Position numbers and translations under genes: made by a program. The notes beneath the pieces are model-generated. The model made no database searches. It saw only the letters and a program-made list of their open reading frames with translations, and was not told where the DNA came from. 64,000 nucleotides of DNA from positions 4,346 through 68,345 of the IMG/VR virus record IMGVR_UViG_3300035517_000173. One strand, 5' to 3'. Shown here in pieces: positions 2,522-64,000 of this stretch (positions are counted from its first letter, which is position 1; each line of letters starts with the position of its first letter). The DNA is from a virus (taxonomy: Duplodnaviria > Caudoviricetes).

Positions 2522-5500
2522 TTACAAGCAGAACGCAGGGCAGATACCATAGGTTTTATTCGGTACGGTAGTTACCGCCGTACCAGAAGTACTTACATAA
2601 TAAACATACGACCGACCCGATAAATATCCTTGTGACCACCATGCTACGGCACTTCCTGTACTTGTAGCATTACCGGCGTACTTAATTCGATTACTGCTTG
2701 TGTTATAATAGGCATAGCACGAACTACCAAAAATATCAATGTAATCTGCGATAAAACAATAATCAGAAACACTAGTGGTATCCATATATGGGGTCCAAGT
2801 CACTGGTCTAACCAAACCTTTAAGATAGCTCGGTAGTGCTGATTTAAATACGTTATTACACCAAGTGCGTCTTTCGCTCGTTTCCCAATAAAGATTGTAT
2901 ACAGTAGTATTACCGCTAGTTGTACTATTCAAGGTCATATACCCAGTCTCGGCTGTTGTTCCATTAGATAATACATTTTTAAGCTGTACCGTGATAAGTG
3001 CTTTTGTCTTGCCACCATTCGCATCGGTCAGTGTATCTTTGTCAAAATCCAAGATAACCAACTGCTGTGTCTGCGCTACATGGGATTCTCCTACTCCAGT
3101 CGCTGACATCGCAGACAGTGATATGGTTCTTGCATCGCCCACACTCCATACGGACTTCACGTCATCCAAAGTAATCATGCCGTTATAGTAGGCATTTATC
3201 ATTCTGGCAATCTGGCTGTCCGTTGCAGTTGACCATGGCACTAAGTATCCGCTAAATATATCCACGCTCGTAAGCACTGTTGAGCCAGATTTTAGGCTTA
3301 ATGTACTGCCATCCAGTGACATTGTGGTTGCGTAATTACTGTGGGTATGTGATGACTTCGCCGCACCTATGTTGTCTGGGGTACAGTATTCCTTGTAGTT
3401 TGTTTCATCTAATAATCTAGACCAGCTATACCAATCATCACCAACATCTCTTAATGCACGATACCACATTCCACCGCCAGCTTTATCCCAACGGACATCT
3501 ATTTCTGCTGAGCCTGTATTACCCATACCAAACCCAATTACAGCACCATATGGTGTTGGTGCATTTGTTCCAGTATACGTTCTGTATGAATATACTCCTC
3601 TATATAAAGTATTTCTTCCTGTTAATGGGTCAGCAGTACCTATTGGAGATATATGGTCGATTATATCACCGTAGTTCCCCTCGTCTAACACTCGTTTCCA
3701 GGATACCCATGTGCCGTTATTTCTTCCTCTAACTGCAATCGAACCAGACCGATAATCTCCATATATCATGTGTGCCCATGATGAAGAATAAACTTGCTTG
3801 TAAAGAGCACCATCCGTGATATCTGTTGTCAGTGCAGTACCAGTATACCCTTGTACATAGCCAATGGCATTAGCGGTCAAAGTATCCTGCCCTACATTTG
3901 CCGTAGATGTATTAGTAAAATATGAAAGACCAGATGCTGTATCTGCCACAGCTACTCTACCGTTCAGCGTACTAGTGAGATATCCAGTTGGTAATTCCGT
4001 TACATCTTCATTCTCCCAAGTCCATGATATACTGTTATATGCCTTAGAACCGAATGTAAAATCTGTGATAGTAATATCATCATATGTACCCTGTTTCTTA
4101 ACATAAAGTGTCCATGTACCTGTGTCAGATTTGTAATAGTATAGAGGCCATCCGTTTACTAACCAGTGATAACATCCAGCCACCGAAGGGTCTGTACTAG
4201 TATTTCCTGCAAATATTATGCTATAATTAATTTTTAAGCCAATACCTCTATGGGTCACAGCAAACATGATTGGTCTGTCTGCATAACTGCCTGTGATTTT
4301 CAGCGTAGCTATTTTCTTATAATAGCCATCGGTGTAATTGGTATATCCAAATTCTTTATTGACGATATCCTTATTCATGTAAATTCTGCCAGACACGTAT
4401 CCACCAGATAACGGCAAATATGTACTTGCGATGTTATTTCCATTGCCATCTTGCGTTGCTTTGGTTGCTGTGGCGACACTATCACTCGCCGTAATATATC
4501 CACTGTCATTTGTCAATGCAGACACCTTTGTCGGTATATCATCCGTAACAGCAATAGTCCCCGACTTGCTAGGAAGTGTAAGCTGATTTTTATTATACGT
4601 AGTTTCATTACAAATACTTTGACAATTTAAAATCCTGTGAATGTATCCATAATGCCATTTGTACGACGCTGACCCAAAGTCTATGTTACTAGATGTTTTA
4701 GGTGCTAACGCACCAGTAATTGAACTTGAACCCGACAAGGGTATAGCACCAACATTGTCACACGTGATGTTCACATTCCCCCTGCGATAGCTTGTCTCTG
4801 AATCTCCCTTTACTCCTGTCACTGGCGTTCCTGCAAGGCAATCCCAGTATCCGTCTGCCGTATAATAGACGTTCGTTCCCATCGGGTATTCGATACCGCC
4901 GCCATCTTTAAAATTGTCATCCGATGTGAAATCATCCGATATGTTATACATATAACCCGAAACTTTAGGAGACGTGTTCAGCTCGGCATAAGTTATCGTA
5001 CCCATAGGTAGAAGTGTTCCATTTAGCCCCTCTGATATACTTTTGGTCTGCTCATAATATTTCTTTGCGTCCTCGGAATATCCCTTTGATTCTGTGACGG
5101 CGGTATCCAGGTCGGTTGCATATCCGCTTGCACTTTCTGCGGATTGCAGTGCTTCTGATGCTTTCGCTGTTGCTGTATTAGCGGAATTGGATGCGCTTTC
5201 TGCACTTGCCTTAGCGTTTGTTTCGCTTGCACTTGCCGATTCCGCACTCTCACTTGCCGTAGATGCACTTTTTGACGCACTTGATTCACTCGCACTTGCC
5301 GATTCTGCGCTTGCTTTAGCGTTCGCTTCACTTGTTGATGCGCTTTCCGCTTTTTCCGTAGCAGTTTCTTCCGATTTCTTTGCCGATTCTGCGCTTGCAC
5401 TTGCGTTCTTCTCACTCGTCGATGCACTTTCTGCACTGGCTTTAGCGTTCGCTTCACTTGTTGATGCGCTTTCCGCTTTTTCCGTAGCAGTTTCTTCCGA

Positions 5501-41709: not shown

Positions 41710-43089
41710 TTAAAAAGTGACAAAATATATCAAGATTTCATCACCTTTTATAATTATCTTTTCAATACATTCTTTGAGAACTTTGTTTTTTTCCCGACTT
41801 GTCAAATCATCCCATACATCCGATATCCTCTTAATATCGTTTATTGCACGTATATCCGTTTTGGCTGCCGATTCCTGCTCGATTTCCAATTGCTCTTTCA
41901 ATGTTTCAACACGTTTTTCTTCTTCCATTACTAAATCTAGCAGATTCTGACTTTCATTTTCAACGTAAAGAGAATAGTATTTCTTTATCTTTGCATTAGC
42001 TTTCTGTATTGCGTCTCTAATCTCTTTTACGCTGTCTTTCTTTTCATGTAAGTCATCTATGCGGATTGAAAAATCTTTAAAAGACTTTTCAACTTCGGAT
42101 TCAACATCTTTTGCCATTACCATTGTGTCACAGTTTTCAGCACGTTTCATATATTCCTTGCTGCTAAGTCCATAATGCGAATAGCAAACCAACTTGTGAT
42201 AATCTTTACCCCATTTTTGGTATCTCATTCTTGCCCCGCATTTTCCGCAATAGCATAGTCCTGTCAGCATATTATCATTATTTATATGGGAGTTTGTCGT
42301 GCGTTGCATCATGCAACGCATAGCTTTGTCGTATACTTCTTTATCTACGATTGGTTCATGCAATCCTTTGTATACTTCCCCTTTGTACTCAATCAATCCT
42401 ATGTTAGATTTTCGTTTGAGCATTTGTGCAACAATACGCTCACCTTTCAATCCTAGAATTGACGATATACTATTACAAGAATAACCGTCAATGTATAGTT
42501 GATATGCCTTTCTTACATTTTCCGCTTCATCTTCCTTAGGATGGAGAATACCGTCGTTTCGGTCATAATAATATCCATACGGTGTCCTTCCACCGCCCAT
42601 CCACAATCCTTTCTTGACGCGTTCCACCATCCCTGCCCTTGTTCTCATGTATATAACTTCACGTTCATACTGGTTCATGGCAGCGTTCATAGTGACCATC
42701 ATCTTGTCCATAGGGTTTTCAGTCCGGATATCCTCTGTCATAGACACGATATTAACATCATAGCTTGGCAAGACCTTATACAGCAACGTCAACGTATCTA
42801 TAACATCCCTTGACATTCTGTCTAGTTTGTATATATATACCGTCTTAATCATGCCATTGCTTGCGTCAGATAGTAGCTTGTTTATCTCCGGTCTTTCCAT
42901 CTTGGCACCGCTATAACCACCATCAACATACCATCTGCTTATCGTTATCTTGTTTTTTTCGCAGTATTCAGTTATTTTTTGACGTTGTACATCAAGACCA
43001 TACTTTTCTGTTTGCGCCTCTGTAGAAACTCTAAGATATGCCACGTTCCCTTTTTTTGCTGTTAGGTTTTCTCCTTTCATACGTTCCAC
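41710..43089 (-). CDS. Large serine recombinase (integrase)
   Basis: YLRVST catalytic Ser, YKLDRMSR, recombinase domain, CGKCG zinc ribbon, coiled coil. Confidence 0.93.
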   Translation of the reverse strand: MERMKGENLTAKKGNVAYLRVSTEAQTEKYGLDVQRQKITEYCEKNKITISRWYVDGGYSGAKMERPEINKLLSDASNGMIKTVYIYKLDRMSRDVIDTLTLLYKVLPSYDVNIVSMTEDIRTENPMDKMMVTMNAAMNQYEREVIYMRTRAGMVERVKKGLWMGGGRTPYGYYYDRNDGILHPKEDEAENVRKAYQLYIDGYSCNSISSILGLKGERIVAQMLKRKSNIGLIEYKGEVYKGLHEPIVDKEVYDKAMRCMMQRTTNSHINNDNMLTGLCYCGKCGARMRYQKWGKDYHKLVCYSHYGLSSKEYMKRAENCDTMVMAKDVESEVEKSFKDFSIRIDDLHEKKDSVKEIRDAIQKANAKIKKYYSLYVENESQNLLDLVMEEEKRVETLKEQLEIEQESAAKTDIRAINDIKRISDVWDDLTSREKNKVLKECIEKIIIKGDEILIYFVTF

Positions 43090-51401: not shown

Positions 51402-53897
51402 TTACATAAAGTCAAACAACGTAGGTGCTGTGATTTCGTTTTCTGCCGACTGCAAATACCCCAATGCGTCTCTAAAATAATCGCTGTTTAACTCACACAT
51501 ATATCCTATACGTTTCATTTTGATAGCTGACATAGGTACTGTACCTAATCCACCAAATGGGTCATACACCAAATCTCCCTCGTTTGAATATCTGTTAATG
51601 ATTCTTTCTACAATATCTAGTTGGAGAGGGCAAACGTGCATTTGCTTTCTCCTATTGCTTTGTTGCGTGTTTAATGTCCTCATTCGGTTTACATCGTCCC
51701 ACACTTCCAACTGATTCCATGAACCGGGGGCAACCACCATAAATATAGCTGGCAACTTTCCGTTTTCGTCCAGTTTCTTTGCAAGTGCAACGTGTTCTTC
51801 ATAGTTATAAACATTTTCCCTAGAAAATTCACGATAGACTGCCTGCAAATTTTTCACAGGGACTTCCTCTAATTCTTCCTTGCTTATAAGCCTGTCTCCG
51901 CTACTTCTCCAATAAGCGTGTGCGTCAATCTGCCACTGTGCCCTTGTATAATCCTCTTTGGACTTTGATACTGGCTCATCGGCATAAGCCTTTGTTCTAT
52001 CCGTCGGAAGTTTACGGAAAAGCAACACATATTCTGGACAACCTACACCCATCTTTGAACCATCTTTGCATTGTTCCGTCCAACCTAATCTATATGTTTG
52101 GTTGTTTTCTCTGACAACGTCTGTGACAACTGTAATCATTCCAAAATACTGAAAACCATGTCTCATATAATGCTTTATACAATCTGCATGAAAAGGCTCG
52201 ATTGTCGGCATACCAGTTCCAGTAGCATTCCCAAAAAGAACTCTGTCTTTCACATGGATAGCCGCCACTCTACCCGGCTTTAACACTCGCAATAATTCTG
52301 GTGTCAAAAAGTCCATCTGTTTGAAAAACTCATCGTCATTCTCATTACAACCAAAATCGTTGTAATTAAGACTGTACTCATAATGGTTTCCAAATGGAAT
52401 TGACGTATGTATTAAATCAATGCTGTTATCTTCCATCTTCCTCGTGTGTTCTACGCAATCATTATTCACCGCTGTATACTTTTCTCCTGTGACAATCACT
52501 TCTTCAACACCCATCTTTCTGTTTAACTGCTCAAATCGGTTTACATTGTTTAATCCATATTGCTTAACAATCTCTATCATTTTAGCAACCATTTCATCAT
52601 GCCTTTTCCACTTATCAAGCAACACGTCTTTCACTGTACGTTCACTTTCCATATAGATAATGTCAATGATTACCTTTTCATCTTGCAAAAATCGGTAACA
52701 TCTGTGTATAGCCTGTAAGAAGTCGTTTGCTTCATAATCAATTCCAAGAAATATCTCTCTGTGACAATATCTCTGGAAGTTACAACCGCTACCACTTAAT
52801 GATTTCTTCGTGGCAAATAGCCTTGTCCTGCCTTCTGAAAAGTCAATAACACGCTTTTCTCTCTCGTCATAGTCGAGACTTCCCCAGATAGATACAACCT
52901 CTGGGATGGCCTTTTCTATGGCGTGTCTTTCGGCTTCTCTGTCGTGCCACAATACAAAATGGTCGTCTGGACTTGCATTGATGATTTCAACCAGCTTTGC
53001 AACTCGCTCATCTATCGAATTTCCCTTTATATGTGAAGCTTCTTTCAGTCCAACACTCGCTTCATTGAAAAGTGTAAACTGTCCATATCTATCAGTTTCT
53101 TTTCCATATTCAATCGGAATCTCGTGCCACCTCACTTCTAACTCAGGCAACACATATCCGTCATCGGAATATTCGGGATTTAAATCTGACGGCTTCGTGC
53201 AAAATAACGCCCAACTGCTAATCCATAACCAAAACTCTGTCTCCCTGTTTGGATATAAGGTTAAATTGTTCGCCTTTGTGCTGTCTCTCTGGAAAAACCT
53301 TGTTAAAGCCTGTCCAGTAGGCATAACCTCTAAATAGCCTGCATAGTGAATCAGTTCCTTATATTTGTTTGGAGATGGTGTAGCTGTTGCAACCATCTTA
53401 TAAGGCACTCCCTTGAATTTATCTAGGAATGTCTGATACGTCTTGCTGCCAAAACTTCTTAAAACGCTTGCCTCATCTAATGATGTAGCCATAAAGTATG
53501 TAGGCTCAATATCACCATCTCTTACTCTTTCGTAATTTGTAATAACAATTTCAGTTGTAGAATTTTTCACATCTTCCATTGTTTTCACATACTGCGGTGC
53601 TTCATATCCTAAAACTTGCACTGAATCTCTTGTAAATTCCTGTTTTACACCTAAAGGGCATACAAGCAAGGCTTTTCCACCAAACTTATTTGTGACTTGA
53701 TGTAGGAACTCTAACTCTTGTACGGTCTTGCCTAATCCGTAGCTTTCAAATAAAGCTCGTTTTCCACCTCTTAATGCCCATCTCACAGCTTCTTTTTGGT
53801 GTGGCATGAGTGCCGAGTTTATTTCACTTTCCGACACCTCAAAGCCTGTCTCTTTTGCAATGTCAATTTTCGTCTGCAAAAACTCTGTATAATTCAT
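51402..53897 (-). CDS. SNF2-like helicase fused to an N4/N6 DNA methyltransferase
   Basis: GLGKT, LDEAS, TATPSPN, QAIHRCYR; then TSIPF and DPFGGLGT (beta-class order). Confidence 0.88.
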   Translation of the reverse strand: MNYTEFLQTKIDIAKETGFEVSESEINSALMPHQKEAVRWALRGGKRALFESYGLGKTVQELEFLHQVTNKFGGKALLVCPLGVKQEFTRDSVQVLGYEAPQYVKTMEDVKNSTTEIVITNYERVRDGDIEPTYFMATSLDEASVLRSFGSKTYQTFLDKFKGVPYKMVATATPSPNKYKELIHYAGYLEVMPTGQALTRFFQRDSTKANNLTLYPNRETEFWLWISSWALFCTKPSDLNPEYSDDGYVLPELEVRWHEIPIEYGKETDRYGQFTLFNEASVGLKEASHIKGNSIDERVAKLVEIINASPDDHFVLWHDREAERHAIEKAIPEVVSIWGSLDYDEREKRVIDFSEGRTRLFATKKSLSGSGCNFQRYCHREIFLGIDYEANDFLQAIHRCYRFLQDEKVIIDIIYMESERTVKDVLLDKWKRHDEMVAKMIEIVKQYGLNNVNRFEQLNRKMGVEEVIVTGEKYTAVNNDCVEHTRKMEDNSIDLIHTSIPFGNHYEYSLNYNDFGCNENDDEFFKQMDFLTPELLRVLKPGRVAAIHVKDRVLFGNATGTGMPTIEPFHADCIKHYMRHGFQYFGMITVVTDVVRENNQTYRLGWTEQCKDGSKMGVGCPEYVLLFRKLPTDRTKAYADEPVSKSKEDYTRAQWQIDAHAYWRSSGDRLISKEELEEVPVKNLQAVYREFSRENVYNYEEHVALAKKLDENGKLPAIFMVVAPGSWNQLEVWDDVNRMRTLNTQQSNRRKQMHVCPLQLDIVERIINRYSNEGDLVYDPFGGLGTVPMSAIKMKRIGYMCELNSDYFRDALGYLQSAENEITAPTLFDFM

Positions 53898-59740: not shown

Positions 59741-60115
59741 CTACACCTCGCTTTCATATCTGCCATCTATAATCATTCTATCTATGACACATTCCAGTTC
59801 TTCGTATGATATAGACAACTTGATATTCTCCATATTTTCATTGTAATATTCGATTTTGTGTCCGTTTTGGCTGTGGTCTGCACCATGAATATAATTAGGT
59901 TTTTTAGTTGGAGAACCAAACCCGCCTACTCCATATTCCTTTTTCAAGAAATCTATTCTCTCTTTTTTATCTGTGTTAGAATGAAAAAACTCTGCAATTC
60001 TTTTCTTCCCATTTGTGAAACCACTACCACCATTTGCGTAATCTTCAATAGGATTATATTCTTGCGATTCGTTCTGTATAAACGAAAATATAGACATTTG
60101 TCCGTCCATTGTCAT
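59741..60115 (-). CDS. Hypothetical protein
   Basis: GQMSIF; GSGF..GK.RI motif. Confidence 0.7.
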   Translation of the reverse strand: MTMDGQMSIFSFIQNESQEYNPIEDYANGGSGFTNGKKRIAEFFHSNTDKKERIDFLKKEYGVGGFGSPTKKPNYIHGADHSQNGHKIEYYNENMENIKLSISYEELECVIDRMIIDGRYESEV

Positions 60116-62025
60116 ACCTCGCTAACTGTCAATTTTTCGTCATCTGACCGCCTAATCATTATTATCTGATTGTCCATTTCCGGCACTCTCCAACTGTCAA
60201 GGCTCTCGGTATCGTCCGTAATAATCGGAAGTGTTACATTGTTTGCCCTCTGAAACGCCCGACAAATATCTATCTCTGCTAAAATCTTTGCACCATGATT
60301 AAGGTTTCTGTCGTAACTTTCGCCATTTACTACTGGTTGGCAAATATCTTTCAATTCACCGTTTATCTGTGGCTCAAACATCTTAAACTGGATATACTCA
60401 AAATTGTTGTTCACGCTTTCTTCCAGTAATTCATTTTTCTTCCGGTCAAACTCTTTCAGATAGTTCAGAGTCCGTTCTTCATCTGCAATTTTCTGTGAGA
60501 TTTCCCTCTGTTCTTTCTGCAATTCTGCAATCCGTTCATCAATCGCAACATTACTTTCAGATTTTGCAATCTGCTTTTCGATTTCAAGCAACTGTGACCG
60601 CAAGTCGTTTTCTTCATCCTTTAGATTTTGTTTCGTTGTGAAGAAAGAATTACTCTCTTTCATGGCTTTTTCTTTTTCTGCAATTTGATTATTCAGTTCA
60701 ACAATGTCCGTTCTTTCTACAATGTCCATTAACGGTGGAAGTTTACAGAACTGGTTTCTAAGGTCTGCAATGGCTGTATTCAGCATTTCAAGGCTTTTCT
60801 TGTGTTCGGCAAGTTCCAGTTCAAGTGTGCGTAATGTTTCCTGCTCAACCTCAATTTCAGATTTCAAACGATTTCCGCTTTCTTCAATGCTTTTCAATTT
60901 TTCTTCTCTATGGCTTTCAAATTCTGCCCTTAATTCGTCCTTTTTCTCACTAGGGTATTCTTGCCCGCAATACTGACAAATAAGGCTATTTTCGTCAAAT
61001 TCAAGGTCTTGCGTGTCTTTGTACTTCTCACGCAATCTCTCAACATCTATCCGATTTTCTTTGATTTCCCGCTTTACATAAATAATATCTTTTTCTGTGT
61101 CTTTAATCGTTCTATTGGTTTTATCTGCAAGGAATCTCTTTTCTGATAGCTTGTTCTCAATCTCTAACCTATACTTAGAATTTTCCTCATTCGCCTGTCT
61201 GATAAGGTCATTTACTTGAAACTTCAACTCCAGTATTCCGTCACTTGCCTTGTCGATTTCTTCCATCTGCTTAGATAAGTCATCCTGCTTTGCCTTATTC
61301 TCTTTCAACTGCTCCTTTATGGCATTTCTGCTCAATTCCAGTTCGGCAACATCAATGTCAATCTTATGTGTTTCAAGTTCCTTAATTGCTGAAATCTTCT
61401 CATCTCTTTGCTGTTCCAATCCGACAATATTTCTTGCTTTGCTGCCGTGAATTTTATCGTTGCAGCTTTGCTTGATTTCTTTTACACTTCCAACTTGAAG
61501 TAATGCTCTGATTGGCTCAAATTCAGAAAACATATCAACAATTTGTACGTTCGTGAATTTTCCAAATGTATTCTCTAACAGTTCTCTGCGTTTGGAAGTG
61601 TCCATCCGCAAGAAAGAATAAGGATTCACGCATAAATCGCTAGGAATGATTTCTGAAACATATTTCGCATATTCTCCGCTTTGTTTTGGAATATCTGACA
61701 CGTAACAATCCGTCACATTTCCAGTGATTTCTCCCTTTTTGTTGCGTTTCTGATAGTGTGACTTTTTGAGTGTTATGCCGCTGTCAAGTGCCAGTTCAAC
61801 CTCTGTCACAACATCATCAATGTCTTTACCCTCACTGTCATGCGGTCTTATGCCTGTAATTTCCTTGCCGTTCTCATCCTTAAGATTTAATATCCAGTAG
61901 ATAGCACGTTTAATTGTGGATTTTCCAACTTCATTACATCCGCTTATGGATGTAATATTATATAAGTCTGTCTCAAAATTATTATGCTTGCAGAAATTCC
62001 GTAAACGAATGTGTGTAAATTTCAT
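60112..62025 (-). CDS. SMC/SbcC-like AAA ATPase
   Basis: GCNEVGKST Walker A, long coiled coil, LNHG signature, IITDDTE. Confidence 0.88.
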   Translation of the reverse strand: MKFTHIRLRNFCKHNNFETDLYNITSISGCNEVGKSTIKRAIYWILNLKDENGKEITGIRPHDSEGKDIDDVVTEVELALDSGITLKKSHYQKRNKKGEITGNVTDCYVSDIPKQSGEYAKYVSEIIPSDLCVNPYSFLRMDTSKRRELLENTFGKFTNVQIVDMFSEFEPIRALLQVGSVKEIKQSCNDKIHGSKARNIVGLEQQRDEKISAIKELETHKIDIDVAELELSRNAIKEQLKENKAKQDDLSKQMEEIDKASDGILELKFQVNDLIRQANEENSKYRLEIENKLSEKRFLADKTNRTIKDTEKDIIYVKREIKENRIDVERLREKYKDTQDLEFDENSLICQYCGQEYPSEKKDELRAEFESHREEKLKSIEESGNRLKSEIEVEQETLRTLELELAEHKKSLEMLNTAIADLRNQFCKLPPLMDIVERTDIVELNNQIAEKEKAMKESNSFFTTKQNLKDEENDLRSQLLEIEKQIAKSESNVAIDERIAELQKEQREISQKIADEERTLNYLKEFDRKKNELLEESVNNNFEYIQFKMFEPQINGELKDICQPVVNGESYDRNLNHGAKILAEIDICRAFQRANNVTLPIITDDTESLDSWRVPEMDNQIIMIRRSDDEKLTVSEV

Positions 62026-62028
62026 ATA

Positions 62029-62661
62029 TTATTCCTCTCCTTTCACATCTCCGACATGGTATCTCCCATAACCGCTTGACCTACCGCTGCCGATTCCACT
62101 TCCAAATCCTGCAATATTGATAATGTTCAAAATCTGTTCTGCACTATATACATTTTCCATATAGGAAATTGTAAACGTAGCACTCCAACCACTAAAACGA
62201 TTAAGACGTGCTAATACTGGACTTCCCTTTTTAGGCGATATAAGTTTTTCATCAATAAAATGTTCTGAAAACACAATAGGCACTAAATCACCAACAATAT
62301 TTACATTTAAGTCAAATTTTGTCTTGTACTTATCAATCCCACTTCTAACGACCGAATCTCCAAATGATTTTTTTAGTCCAAACCCAGTAATGCAAGGTGC
62401 GTTTTCCTTTAATGCCTTTACTAGTCCTTTTTCTGAAAAATCTTTTGGTTTCCCATTTTTCCAGTGCATGGAAGTAATAATGCACTCCCATTCATTCGGT
62501 TTCTCATTATCTTTTGCCTTATCTTTTCTTTGGTTAATAAGTTGCCTTGCTGTAACATCGTTCATTTTGTTCAGCACCAAATCGCTATCTCCGACGATTG
62601 TTACCTCCATGTACTTTGTTGCAAACGGTTTCATTTCGATTGTGTTTGTAGTTCCTTTCAT
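62029..62661 (-). CDS. RAMP/Cas7-like RNA-binding protein (Vipr-like)
   Basis: N-terminal beta strand EVTIVGDSDLVLNK; W.A...ISY strand; C-terminal Gly loop AGFGSGIGSGRSSGYGRY; directly downstream of the pentamer array. Confidence 0.75.
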   Translation of the reverse strand: MKGTTNTIEMKPFATKYMEVTIVGDSDLVLNKMNDVTARQLINQRKDKAKDNEKPNEWECIITSMHWKNGKPKDFSEKGLVKALKENAPCITGFGLKKSFGDSVVRSGIDKYKTKFDLNVNIVGDLVPIVFSEHFIDEKLISPKKGSPVLARLNRFSGWSATFTISYMENVYSAEQILNIINIAGFGSGIGSGRSSGYGRYHVGDVKGEE

Positions 62662-62700
62662 TTTTAATTCCCCCTTAAACTTAAATTATTTTATTTCTAC

Positions 62701-63185
62701 CTCTACAACCTTGTAAGTGACAATAACAAATACAATATGCTGTCCTAGACTGTGATTTCCTGTCCTGTTATGTCCTTTAATACGCTATAGTGTTCTATGC
62801 AAGTGGCTATTGCCACTTATAAGATTGTAGAGAATAGTGTACTGTATTATGGTATGGTGTACTGTCGTGTTGTTTTGTTTTAATACGCTAAATTGATGTG
62901 TTTTGATTTGTTATCTGCCTTGATAGGCATTGGGTTAGCCTTAAAACTTTACAAGTATAGTTTATTGTTCTGTTTTGTCATGTGATGTACTGTACTGTTT
63001 TGCAGTGTTCTTGTTAGAATTAAAGCCAACCAAATACCTACCAAATTGCCCCATAATTCGTGAGTAAAACATATCCAAAGTAAAGATGTATTATAATGTT
63101 CTTTGCTGTTTTGTTATAATCTGTGATTTCATGTCCTGTTCTTTCCTGTTTTTATAGATGGTTTTACCCACCAACTATAAGGCAA
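62701..63185 (-). ncRNA. Array of four guide-like RNA units of NN-(ACA) pentamers, three enclosed by 24-28-bp stems
   Basis: Units at 63087-63151, 62956-63015, 62833-62913, 62731-62800; stems 63158-85/63046-72, 63020-43/62921-44, 62806-32/62701-27; 11 G-U pairs on the minus strand versus 1 A-C. Confidence 0.85.
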
Positions 63186-63203
63186 CTAGCAGATATTAAA
63201 TTT

Positions 63204-63632
63204 TCAAAGTGCGTCTATCTCTGCAAAAATACTCTCTAATTCAGTTAGCGTGTGATACCTCTTTTTGAAAGACTGCAATTCCAGTTTTGCCCTTTTCAAT
63301 AAACTTTGGTATTCATCTTCGTTCTTTAAAATCATTTTCACTGGTTGATATACGCTTTTTTGCGTTGTAATCTGAAAAGTTCTTATTGGTTCGTTATCTT
63401 TTTCAACTGGGGTAAATACAAACATTCGTATCATTTCTCTTGCTTGCAGATTTCTATATTTCTCCCCGGCTACAGTGTCATTCCACTCAAAATCATTGTG
63501 TATGACCGAATTTTCGTTCCTTGCCAAATCCACAACATTCTGTGGCGTGATATTTTCTAGTTTAGCTATTTCCTCATAGGCTTTTTGTGCGTCAGCCTTA
63601 TATTTTGGAATTTTCCATGATATTTTCTCCAT
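63204..63632 (-). CDS. Accessory protein immediately upstream of the pentamer array
   Basis: ITPQNVVDLARNENSVIHNDFEWNDTVAGEKYR..QAR motif; helical. Confidence 0.8.
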   Translation of the reverse strand: MEKISWKIPKYKADAQKAYEEIAKLENITPQNVVDLARNENSVIHNDFEWNDTVAGEKYRNLQAREMIRMFVFTPVEKDNEPIRTFQITTQKSVYQPVKMILKNEDEYQSLLKRAKLELQSFKKRYHTLTELESIFAEIDAL

Positions 63633-63635
63633 TTG

Positions 63636-63998
63636 CTAACACCTCGATTCTTCTAATTCCTTAACTTCTCCATTTTCGATAACATACCAAGTGTTTTCTT
63701 TGATGGTTTCTCCGTCTACTTGTACCATCTTCGCACCTTTCAATGTCCATGAATCAGGTTTCCAGTATTCAGATTCGTCACCTTCCCAATCTGCAAATAC
63801 AAGATGTGAACCTTTAACGCCTTTGGCTTTGGACTTGTAACCCCATGCAATAGCAACCGATTCTTTATCTTTTGCAGATGAAGCACCCTTGTAACCAGTG
63901 GCAGATGAAGCACCACAGTTACCAGTGGCAGATGAAGCACCCTTGTAACCAGTGGCAGATGAAGCACCCTTGTAACCAGTGGCAGATGAAGCACCCTT
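63636..63998 (-). CDS. Gly/Ala/Ser repeat protein (partial, runs off the window)
   Basis: True frame reads (GASSATGYK)n...AIAWGYKSKAKG...VDGETIKENTWY; the track ORF 63740-63994 is the wrong frame. Confidence 0.8.
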   Translation of the reverse strand, partial: KGASSATGYKGASSATGYKGASSATGNCGASSATGYKGASSAKDKESVAIAWGYKSKAKGVKGSHLVFADWEGDESEYWKPDSWTLKGAKMVQVDGETIKENTWYVIENGEVKELEESRC

Positions 63999-64000
63999 GT
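63874..64000. repeat. 27-bp tandem repeat (at least 4.7 copies)
   Basis: GCAGATGAAGCACCCTTGTAACCAGTG units. Confidence 0.95.

Follow-up and report, generated by a model that had tools for sequence, protein, structure and literature searches.

The window analysed here is a 64,000-nt stretch of a 68,345-bp virus record that is rated 100% complete but is linear. Near one end of the window, a gap between two minus-strand genes contains four tracts of pentamers (Table 1), in each of which a variable dinucleotide (NN) alternates with a nearly constant triplet, A-Y-A, on the strand that also carries the flanking genes. No Rfam family was recognised in the array region, a scan for promoters and terminators across it returned nothing above chance, and DNA searches of the phage collection with the locus, for near and for distant relatives, gave no match. 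On the far side of the 142-aa gene, 4.7 copies of a 27-nt tandem repeat (63874-64000) encode, on the minus strand, a 9-aa repeat (about ...ATGYKGASS...) within a 5′-open ORF (63636-63998) that matches PHROG families 27197 and 4433, function not known.

Table 1. Features of the pentamer array locus and its neighbours (window coordinates)
Feature	Position	Strand	Description
SbcC/SMC-like ABC ATPase	60112..62025	minus	637 aa, adjoins the vipr module
vipr	62029..62661	minus	210-aa RAMP-fold protein, homologue of SUSP1 Vipr
Whole non-coding array region (predicted vrRNAs)	62662..63203	minus	542 nt between the vap-like gene and vipr
Unit 4 stem, 3′ arm	62696..62735	minus	~34-bp imperfect closing stem
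Unit 4 (predicted vrRNA)	62731..62800	minus	14 in-phase NN-AYA pentamers
Unit 4 stem, 5′ arm	62797..62838	minus	~34-bp imperfect closing stem
Unit 3 (predicted vrRNA)	62838..62918	minus	two overlapping pentamer phases, 9 + 9 units, between stem-loops
Unit 2 with closing stem	62916..63050	minus	arms ~63009-63050 / 62916-62956, 34 bp
Unit 2 (predicted vrRNA)	62956..63015	minus	12 pentamers
Unit 1 with closing stem	63047..63185	minus	arms ~63154-63185 / 63047-63078, 28 bp, dG -34.9
Unit 1 (predicted vrRNA)	63087..63151	minus	13 pentamers
vap-like accessory gene	63204..63632	minus	142 aa, phrog_15946, upstream of the array

The longest in-phase run in the gap, 14 pentamers, exceeds every run obtained in 2000 shuffles of the same sequence (mean 4.5, maximum 12), and the rhythm of five is therefore not a product of chance. 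The four best period-5 windows of the entire virus record all lie inside this one gap; the remaining period-5 windows of the genome consist of A-rich coding or low-complexity sequence and were ruled out as arrays. Through the neighbouring 210-aa protein 17 related loci were collected, and all 17 have NN-AYA arrays within the 500 nt that precede the vipr homologue, with dinucleotides that differ from locus to locus. Altogether, 28 distinct arrays of 9-23 units were identified in 18 loci, and all 16 dinucleotides occur at NN. The pentamer logo has A (.86) followed by C (.65) or T (.25; Y.90) and then A, the last of which was required when runs were called, so that its 100% is by construction. 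As triplets, ACA accounts for 56%, ATA for 20% and AAA for 9%, and no position carries a conserved G.

Sixteen of 23 arrays lie in loops that are closed by 22-34-bp stems formed by the 5′ and 3′ flanks, with dG values of -25 to -48 kcal/mol versus about -12 for shuffles, and the arrays that are not closed in this way are positioned between stem-loops. For the stem around unit 4, the duplex dG is -40.8 against a shuffled mean of -13.3, with 5 G-U pairs, and for unit 2 it is -40.4 against -14.1; the 5′ arm of the unit 4 stem also holds an alternative small hairpin, GTGGC-AATA-GCCAC. In two related loci (L063:2440-2900 and L064:2244-2932), there are five tracts each, of up to 16 to 23 pentamers, and stem-closed loops alternate strictly with tracts placed between stem-loops. 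The two pentamer phases of unit 3 overlap by 9 nt in an AAAAC-rich stretch (62874-62882), which may correspond to the 'staggered' overlapping vrRNAs of the VIPR discovery paper or to a one-base indel in a single long tract.

The 210-aa protein encoded next to the array connects this architecture to VIPR, a group of CRISPR-related systems described in preprints of April 2026, in which Vipr, a small ancestral RAMP protein, binds vrRNAs of 9-16 pentamers with a constant GGY and a hypervariable NN; the NN pair with double-stranded DNA according to a '1-nt skip rule' that leaves out the codon wobble base, and rival phages and satellites are silenced (bioRxiv 10.64898/2026.04.26.720920, 10.64898/2026.04.26.720927). 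Cryo-EM places one Vipr protomer on each repeat and the target strand in a gapped R-loop within a triplex (VIPR preprints; PDB 36pp). Type II VIPR is represented by Escherichia phage SUSP1 and a Pseudomonas fulva prophage (10.64898/2026.04.26.720920, 10.64898/2026.04.26.720927, 10.64898/2026.10.15.759431; PDB 36pp), and types III-V have enzymatic vap genes (VIPR discovery preprints). Combined into a profile, 68 diverse homologues of the 210-aa protein match PDB 36pp_D, 'SUSP1 Vipr protein', with E 2.2e-14 over nearly the full length (profile positions 21-211, chain residues 4-188); the 210-aa sequence alone gives E 0.89. Its AF2 model has a pLDDT of 96.3, and the top Foldseek neighbours of that model are Cmr4/Csm3, at about E 1e-6. 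The protein is a Vipr homologue with a Cas7-like RAMP fold. Vipr homology, the pentamer array and the vap-like gene together make the locus very probably a VIPR system, with unit 4 as a predicted vrRNA.

The residues that contact the scaffold are not those of SUSP1. In SUSP1 Vipr, the two guanines are bound by four residues, D177 and W178 of the G-loop plus H17 and R138, and the pyrimidine by R179. The G-loop of the window protein is GIGSGRSSGYGRYHV; S192, G193 and N31 align with D177, W178 and H17, respectively, and R179 is kept as R194. In the family alignment, members of the window clade have N with SGR, and more distant members mostly have H with [DE]WR. At three loci (L086, L087 and L098), GGC/NN arrays are found beside [DE][WG]R G-loops, and loci without such a loop have AYA, ACA-like or ATT arrays; of the contigs collected for this comparison, L097 and L100 are too short to contain arrays. 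The association of G-loop type with scaffold type is suggestive and it is not one to one, because two proteins with a 'TQR' G-loop are beside ATT/NN arrays in one case (L089) and ACA-like arrays in the other (L099). In L089, NN-ATT arrays (2415-2470 and 3274-3460) flank the distant Vipr homologue P0168 (G-loop GIHTQRK), a third scaffold type, with a vap homologue present and a split SbcC-like ATPase upstream. In L099, ACA-like pentamers (639-700) are beside the 'TQR' homologue P0187, followed by RecT.

The first-pass annotation had listed the minus-strand pentamers of unit 4, taken NN as codon positions 1 and 2, and named a family-A DNA polymerase motif of Firmicute siphoviruses, KGKIAELALGYGGSVGALKAMG, that these would spell. 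Re-reading the minus strand from 62800 to 62731 gives the identical series, gcATA gaACA ctATA gcGTA ttAAA ggACA taACA ggACA ggAAA tcACA gtCTA ggACA gcATA ttGTA, and the NN read A-E-L-A-L-G-Y-G-G-S-V-G-A-L, agreeing at 14/14 positions with the first two codon bases of AELALGYGGSVGAL, a stretch conserved among the family-A DNA polymerases of gut Firmicute phages. If the third base of each pentamer is read as part of the codon, the Tyr is lost, since taA would be a stop. A regular expression with NN as codon positions 1-2 and any third base (28 specified bases) has 47 exact matches in IMG/VR, in 47 contigs. All 47 are in frame, in ORFs of ~650 aa, at RQKGKIAELALGYGGSVGALKAMG within the context ...RQKGKIAELALGYGGSVGALKAMGAL..., and the wobble bases vary among them. 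The same pattern reversed, as a backward control, has 0 matches, and the patterns of units 1 and 2, with an information content similar to that of unit 4, also have 0 matches in IMG/VR. Three of the 47 ORFs were scanned, and these contain Pfam DNA_pol_A with E values of 1e-21 to 1e-27. Named relatives of the matched polymerases are from phages of Oscillospiraceae, Ruminococcus, Acutalibacteraceae, Christensenellales, Streptococcus, Erysipelothrix and Terrisporobacter, so that the proposed motif, its phage range and its codon register all agree with the database, and the regular-expression search outlined with them separates 47 polA matches from 0 for the backward pattern. In the Streptococcus phage Javan630 (L093; MK448997.1, 36391-38330), the polymerase of the target family is annotated as two adjacent CDS, and so is either split or frameshifted. 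Several early ideas, a TRAP-like ring on ACA triplets, a decoy for the ACA-cutting MazF, quintuplet decoding, RNA editing, origin iterons and a DGR template, were dropped because the decode and the Vipr homology had been established.

Large sequence collections were scanned with exact patterns for targets of the individual units, and the 28 arrays were compared with the 47 polA loci, five complete polA phage genomes and the phage's own genome. Only window unit 4 and one unit from a related phage (L058:2633-2687) rose above shuffled controls among the 28 arrays. The latter belongs to a phage with a Vipr of 69% identity; it reads S-Q-K-G-K-I-A-E-L-A-L and fits with 20/22 NN at the same polymerase motif as unit 4, shifted six codons upstream. 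This tract was not chosen by the unit 4 pattern, and has 53 sites at ≥80% under a skip of 1, against 1, 0 and 0 under skips of 0, 2 and 3; it is the only independent comparison of skip rules, those for units 4 and 2 being circular because the local database was gathered with a skip-1 pattern.

The first 10 NN of unit 2 read K-E-L-N-V-V-S-W-N-D, a PC4/YdbC-like motif. All three exact matches in bacterial genome contigs fall in frame on this motif within genes for small proteins of the PC4 family (Pfam PC4, E 3e-10), as is one of four metagenome matches; the remaining three have in-frame stops and look like chance. These exact matches are from Treponema, Spirochaetaceae and Kiritimatiellae assemblies, not Firmicute phages, they cover just 10 of the 12 dinucleotides of unit 2, and in IMG/VR both an 11-dinucleotide pattern (ga to ct) and the 10-dinucleotide pattern have 0 matches. 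For unit 1, the exact 13-dinucleotide pattern has 0 matches in IMG/VR and an 11-dinucleotide core has 0 in metagenomes, and for unit 3 an exact 9-dinucleotide core has 0 in IMG/VR. Most tracts of the related loci likewise have no target in the polA loci and genomes or in the phage's own genome. By computation, then, a skip of one nucleotide, in which the wobble base of each codon is the one left out, describes unit 4, the L058 unit and unit 2.

That skipping the wobble base defeats synonymous escape is an argument already made by the VIPR authors (10.64898/2026.04.26.720920, 10.64898/2026.04.26.720927), and one that the first-pass annotation also made for unit 4. It is correct in that wobble changes are tolerated, as the 47 matches differ there, and does not extend to complete immunity. 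In named phages with an identical peptide, 25-26 of the 28 NN bases are matched because the codon family used for Leu varies between CTN and TTR, and a change of codon family at Ser or Arg would likewise break the NN match. The polymerase motif contains three Leu and one Ser, and through such six-fold degenerate residues a synonymous escape route therefore remains. In one named phage the motif itself has Ala in place of Ser.

The target is non-self, as had been proposed from the lack of a polymerase gene in the window. That lack holds for the whole genome (best tblastn E-value 0.76): tblastn detected no homologue of polA or of PC4 in the phage's own 68 kb, in which the large ORFs encode a helicase, a primase-helicase, a DnaD-like loader, a serine integrase, a terminase and a portal protein. 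The best site for unit 4 in this genome matches at 17/28, which is background. The serine-type integrase (41710-43089, phrog_95) indicates that the phage is temperate; since it depends on the polymerase of its host, silencing of polA would be harmless to the phage itself. An 831-aa ORF (51402-53897) has matches to helicase (phrog_16) and, C-terminally, to DNA methyltransferase.

Homologues of the 142-aa gene flank vipr, on either side, in 17/17 related loci and in L086-L089, and so adjoin it in the AYA, GGY and ATT clades (with GGC/NN, ACA-like and ATT/NN arrays). A fold search with the 142-aa protein gave no significant match; from its gene neighbourhood, it behaves as a putative vap gene. 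The ATPase gene is a neighbour of the vipr module at most of the related loci and also in a single distant clade, in variable gene order, and may represent either a second accessory gene or a component of the recombination module.

Taken together, the sequence at 62731-62800 very probably encodes a guide RNA, a vrRNA, of a phage-borne VIPR system directed against a rival polA. The array would be transcribed together with vap and vipr and would then be cut at the 22-34-bp stems, which are plausible RNase III-type substrates as long duplexes, to release single guides. The altered G-loop, in which S192/G193 replace D177/W178, and N31, which replaces H17, would read the AYA scaffold. By analogy with SUSP1 and P. 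fulva, each pentamer would be bound by one Vipr protomer, with the constant triplet buried and the NN presented. By the same analogy, the NN of the filament would pair with the template strand of a rival polA in a gapped R-loop from which every wobble base is flipped out, and transcription of the rival's replicative polymerase would be blocked, in a co-infection or in a lysogen.

The same code might have a different outcome if the guide recruits the SbcC/SMC-like ATPase, perhaps with a nuclease, and the rival genome is then cut, trapped or excluded. This alters only the last step of the scheme above, and so overlaps with it, and we consider it unlikely. The ATPase gene does adjoin vap-vipr repeatedly, downstream in the window and in L049, upstream in L050-L057, L060 and L065, and also in the distant ATT-type L089; the 637-aa protein weakly resembles the defence ATPases AriA and LmuB, and enzymatic vap genes are known from the published types III-V. 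However, there is no ATPase beside the GGY-type loci L086, L087 and L098, nor beside L088, no nuclease domain was detected, and the ATPase of the window sits with RecT in a recombination module, so that synteny among related phages may explain the association.

A guide directed at RNA, the polA mRNA, rather than at DNA is very improbable, even though Vipr filaments have been reported to base-pair with single-stranded RNA in vitro. The gene-sense strand of the array region folds better (z -6.8 versus -3.1) and has 68 G-U pairs in its stems, and the RNA is therefore assigned to the gene-sense strand. The NN are therefore sense codons, as they are in all three decoded guides, and an RNA of this sense repeats the mRNA sequence instead of complementing it, and could pair only with the template DNA strand, as had been suggested at the outset. 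Published Vipr complexes with RNA, moreover, stall as incomplete filaments. A coincidental or relic match to polA, in an array that only binds protein (for autoregulation of vipr translation or as an origin-like repeat), has in its favour that two of the four window units have no target and that the array is located in the vipr 5′ leader, but is close to refuted by the decode tests, given 28 specified bases with 47 in-frame matches and 0 for controls, the independent L058 array in another phage at the same polymerase motif, the in-frame match of unit 2 to a second protein motif, and NN that are hypervariable while AYA is kept.

Read as a guide locus against rival polA, the window resembles type II VIPR of SUSP1 and P. 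fulva in having a small Vipr RAMP protein (profile against 36pp_D, E 2e-14), pentamer guides of 9-16 units with a constant triplet and hypervariable NN, a 1-nt skip code that passes over the codon wobble base, a small accessory gene next to vipr, and a phage-encoded system with rival mobile elements as targets and no self-target. It differs in the constant triplet, which is A-Y-A rather than G-G-Y and ends in a purine; neither GGY nor a listed variant is the constant triplet of these arrays. The SUSP1 pocket excludes a purine as third base, and the solved binding geometry is not simply transferable to AYA. Where SUSP1 has D177/W178 and H17, the window protein has S192/G193 and N31. The sequences that follow the tracts vary between units and an invariant 3′ tail with a pseudoknot, a type II feature, was not recognised after them; most guides are instead in loops closed by 22-34-bp stems. 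All guides lie between vap and vipr, and the DNA polymerase motif that they include as a target belongs to gut Firmicute phages.

Degenerate scaffolds are known within the VIPR family. The text of the discovery paper gives only NNNGG, YNNNG and NNNNG as alternative vrRNA repeats, all of which keep G at the last scaffold position, whereas the arrays described here have no conserved G. In a genomic language model survey, 21 clusters have non-canonical repeats, for example GAC/NN, CAC/NN, WGT/NN and TGH/NN (bioRxiv 10.64898/2026.10.21.760802). Like the window arrays, these have a period of five bases, a constant triplet that is not GGY and a Vipr-like fold beside them. An ACA or AYA repeat is not named in the survey text (10.64898/2026.10.21.760802), but its TGH/NN, read on the other strand, is DCA/NN; this agrees with the logo reported here (A, G or T; C; A) and may be the AYA family of the window. 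In contrast to the present analysis, the survey text (10.64898/2026.10.21.760802) gives no targets, stems or protein residues. With the Cas7 backbone proteins of class 1 CRISPR (Csm3, Cmr4), the window Vipr shares the RAMP fold (Foldseek, about E 1e-6), and would share one protomer per guide repeat and a thumb that flips bases periodically. CRISPR, however, has a 6-nt period with five contiguous paired bases, spacers that are acquired by Cas1-Cas2 and effectors of many subunits.

The gapped-guide principle is thus not new, being the published VIPR 1-nt skip code of April 2026. What is new is a guanine-free scaffold with matching protein changes, guides that are bracketed by stems, and a polymerase motif as a recurrent natural target. 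The published gapped code is thereby extended to temperate phages of gut Firmicutes with a scaffold that has no guanine, and a concrete natural target is named, the most conserved stretch of a rival's replicative polymerase, which two phages match independently. The candidate residues for scaffold specificity would be useful if orthogonal VIPR tools were wanted. More tentatively, and with somewhat less than even confidence, we suggest that the AYA-NN clade is a natural orthogonal VIPR 'dialect', in which N31 and S192-G193 would set the accepted triplet, cutting at the stems would release the guides from a single long transcript and the SMC-like ATPase would be a further partner. If so, a single cell could host several VIPR systems at once, each keeping to its own guides, and solo guides of another dialect would not let a phage take over the Vipr of a different phage.
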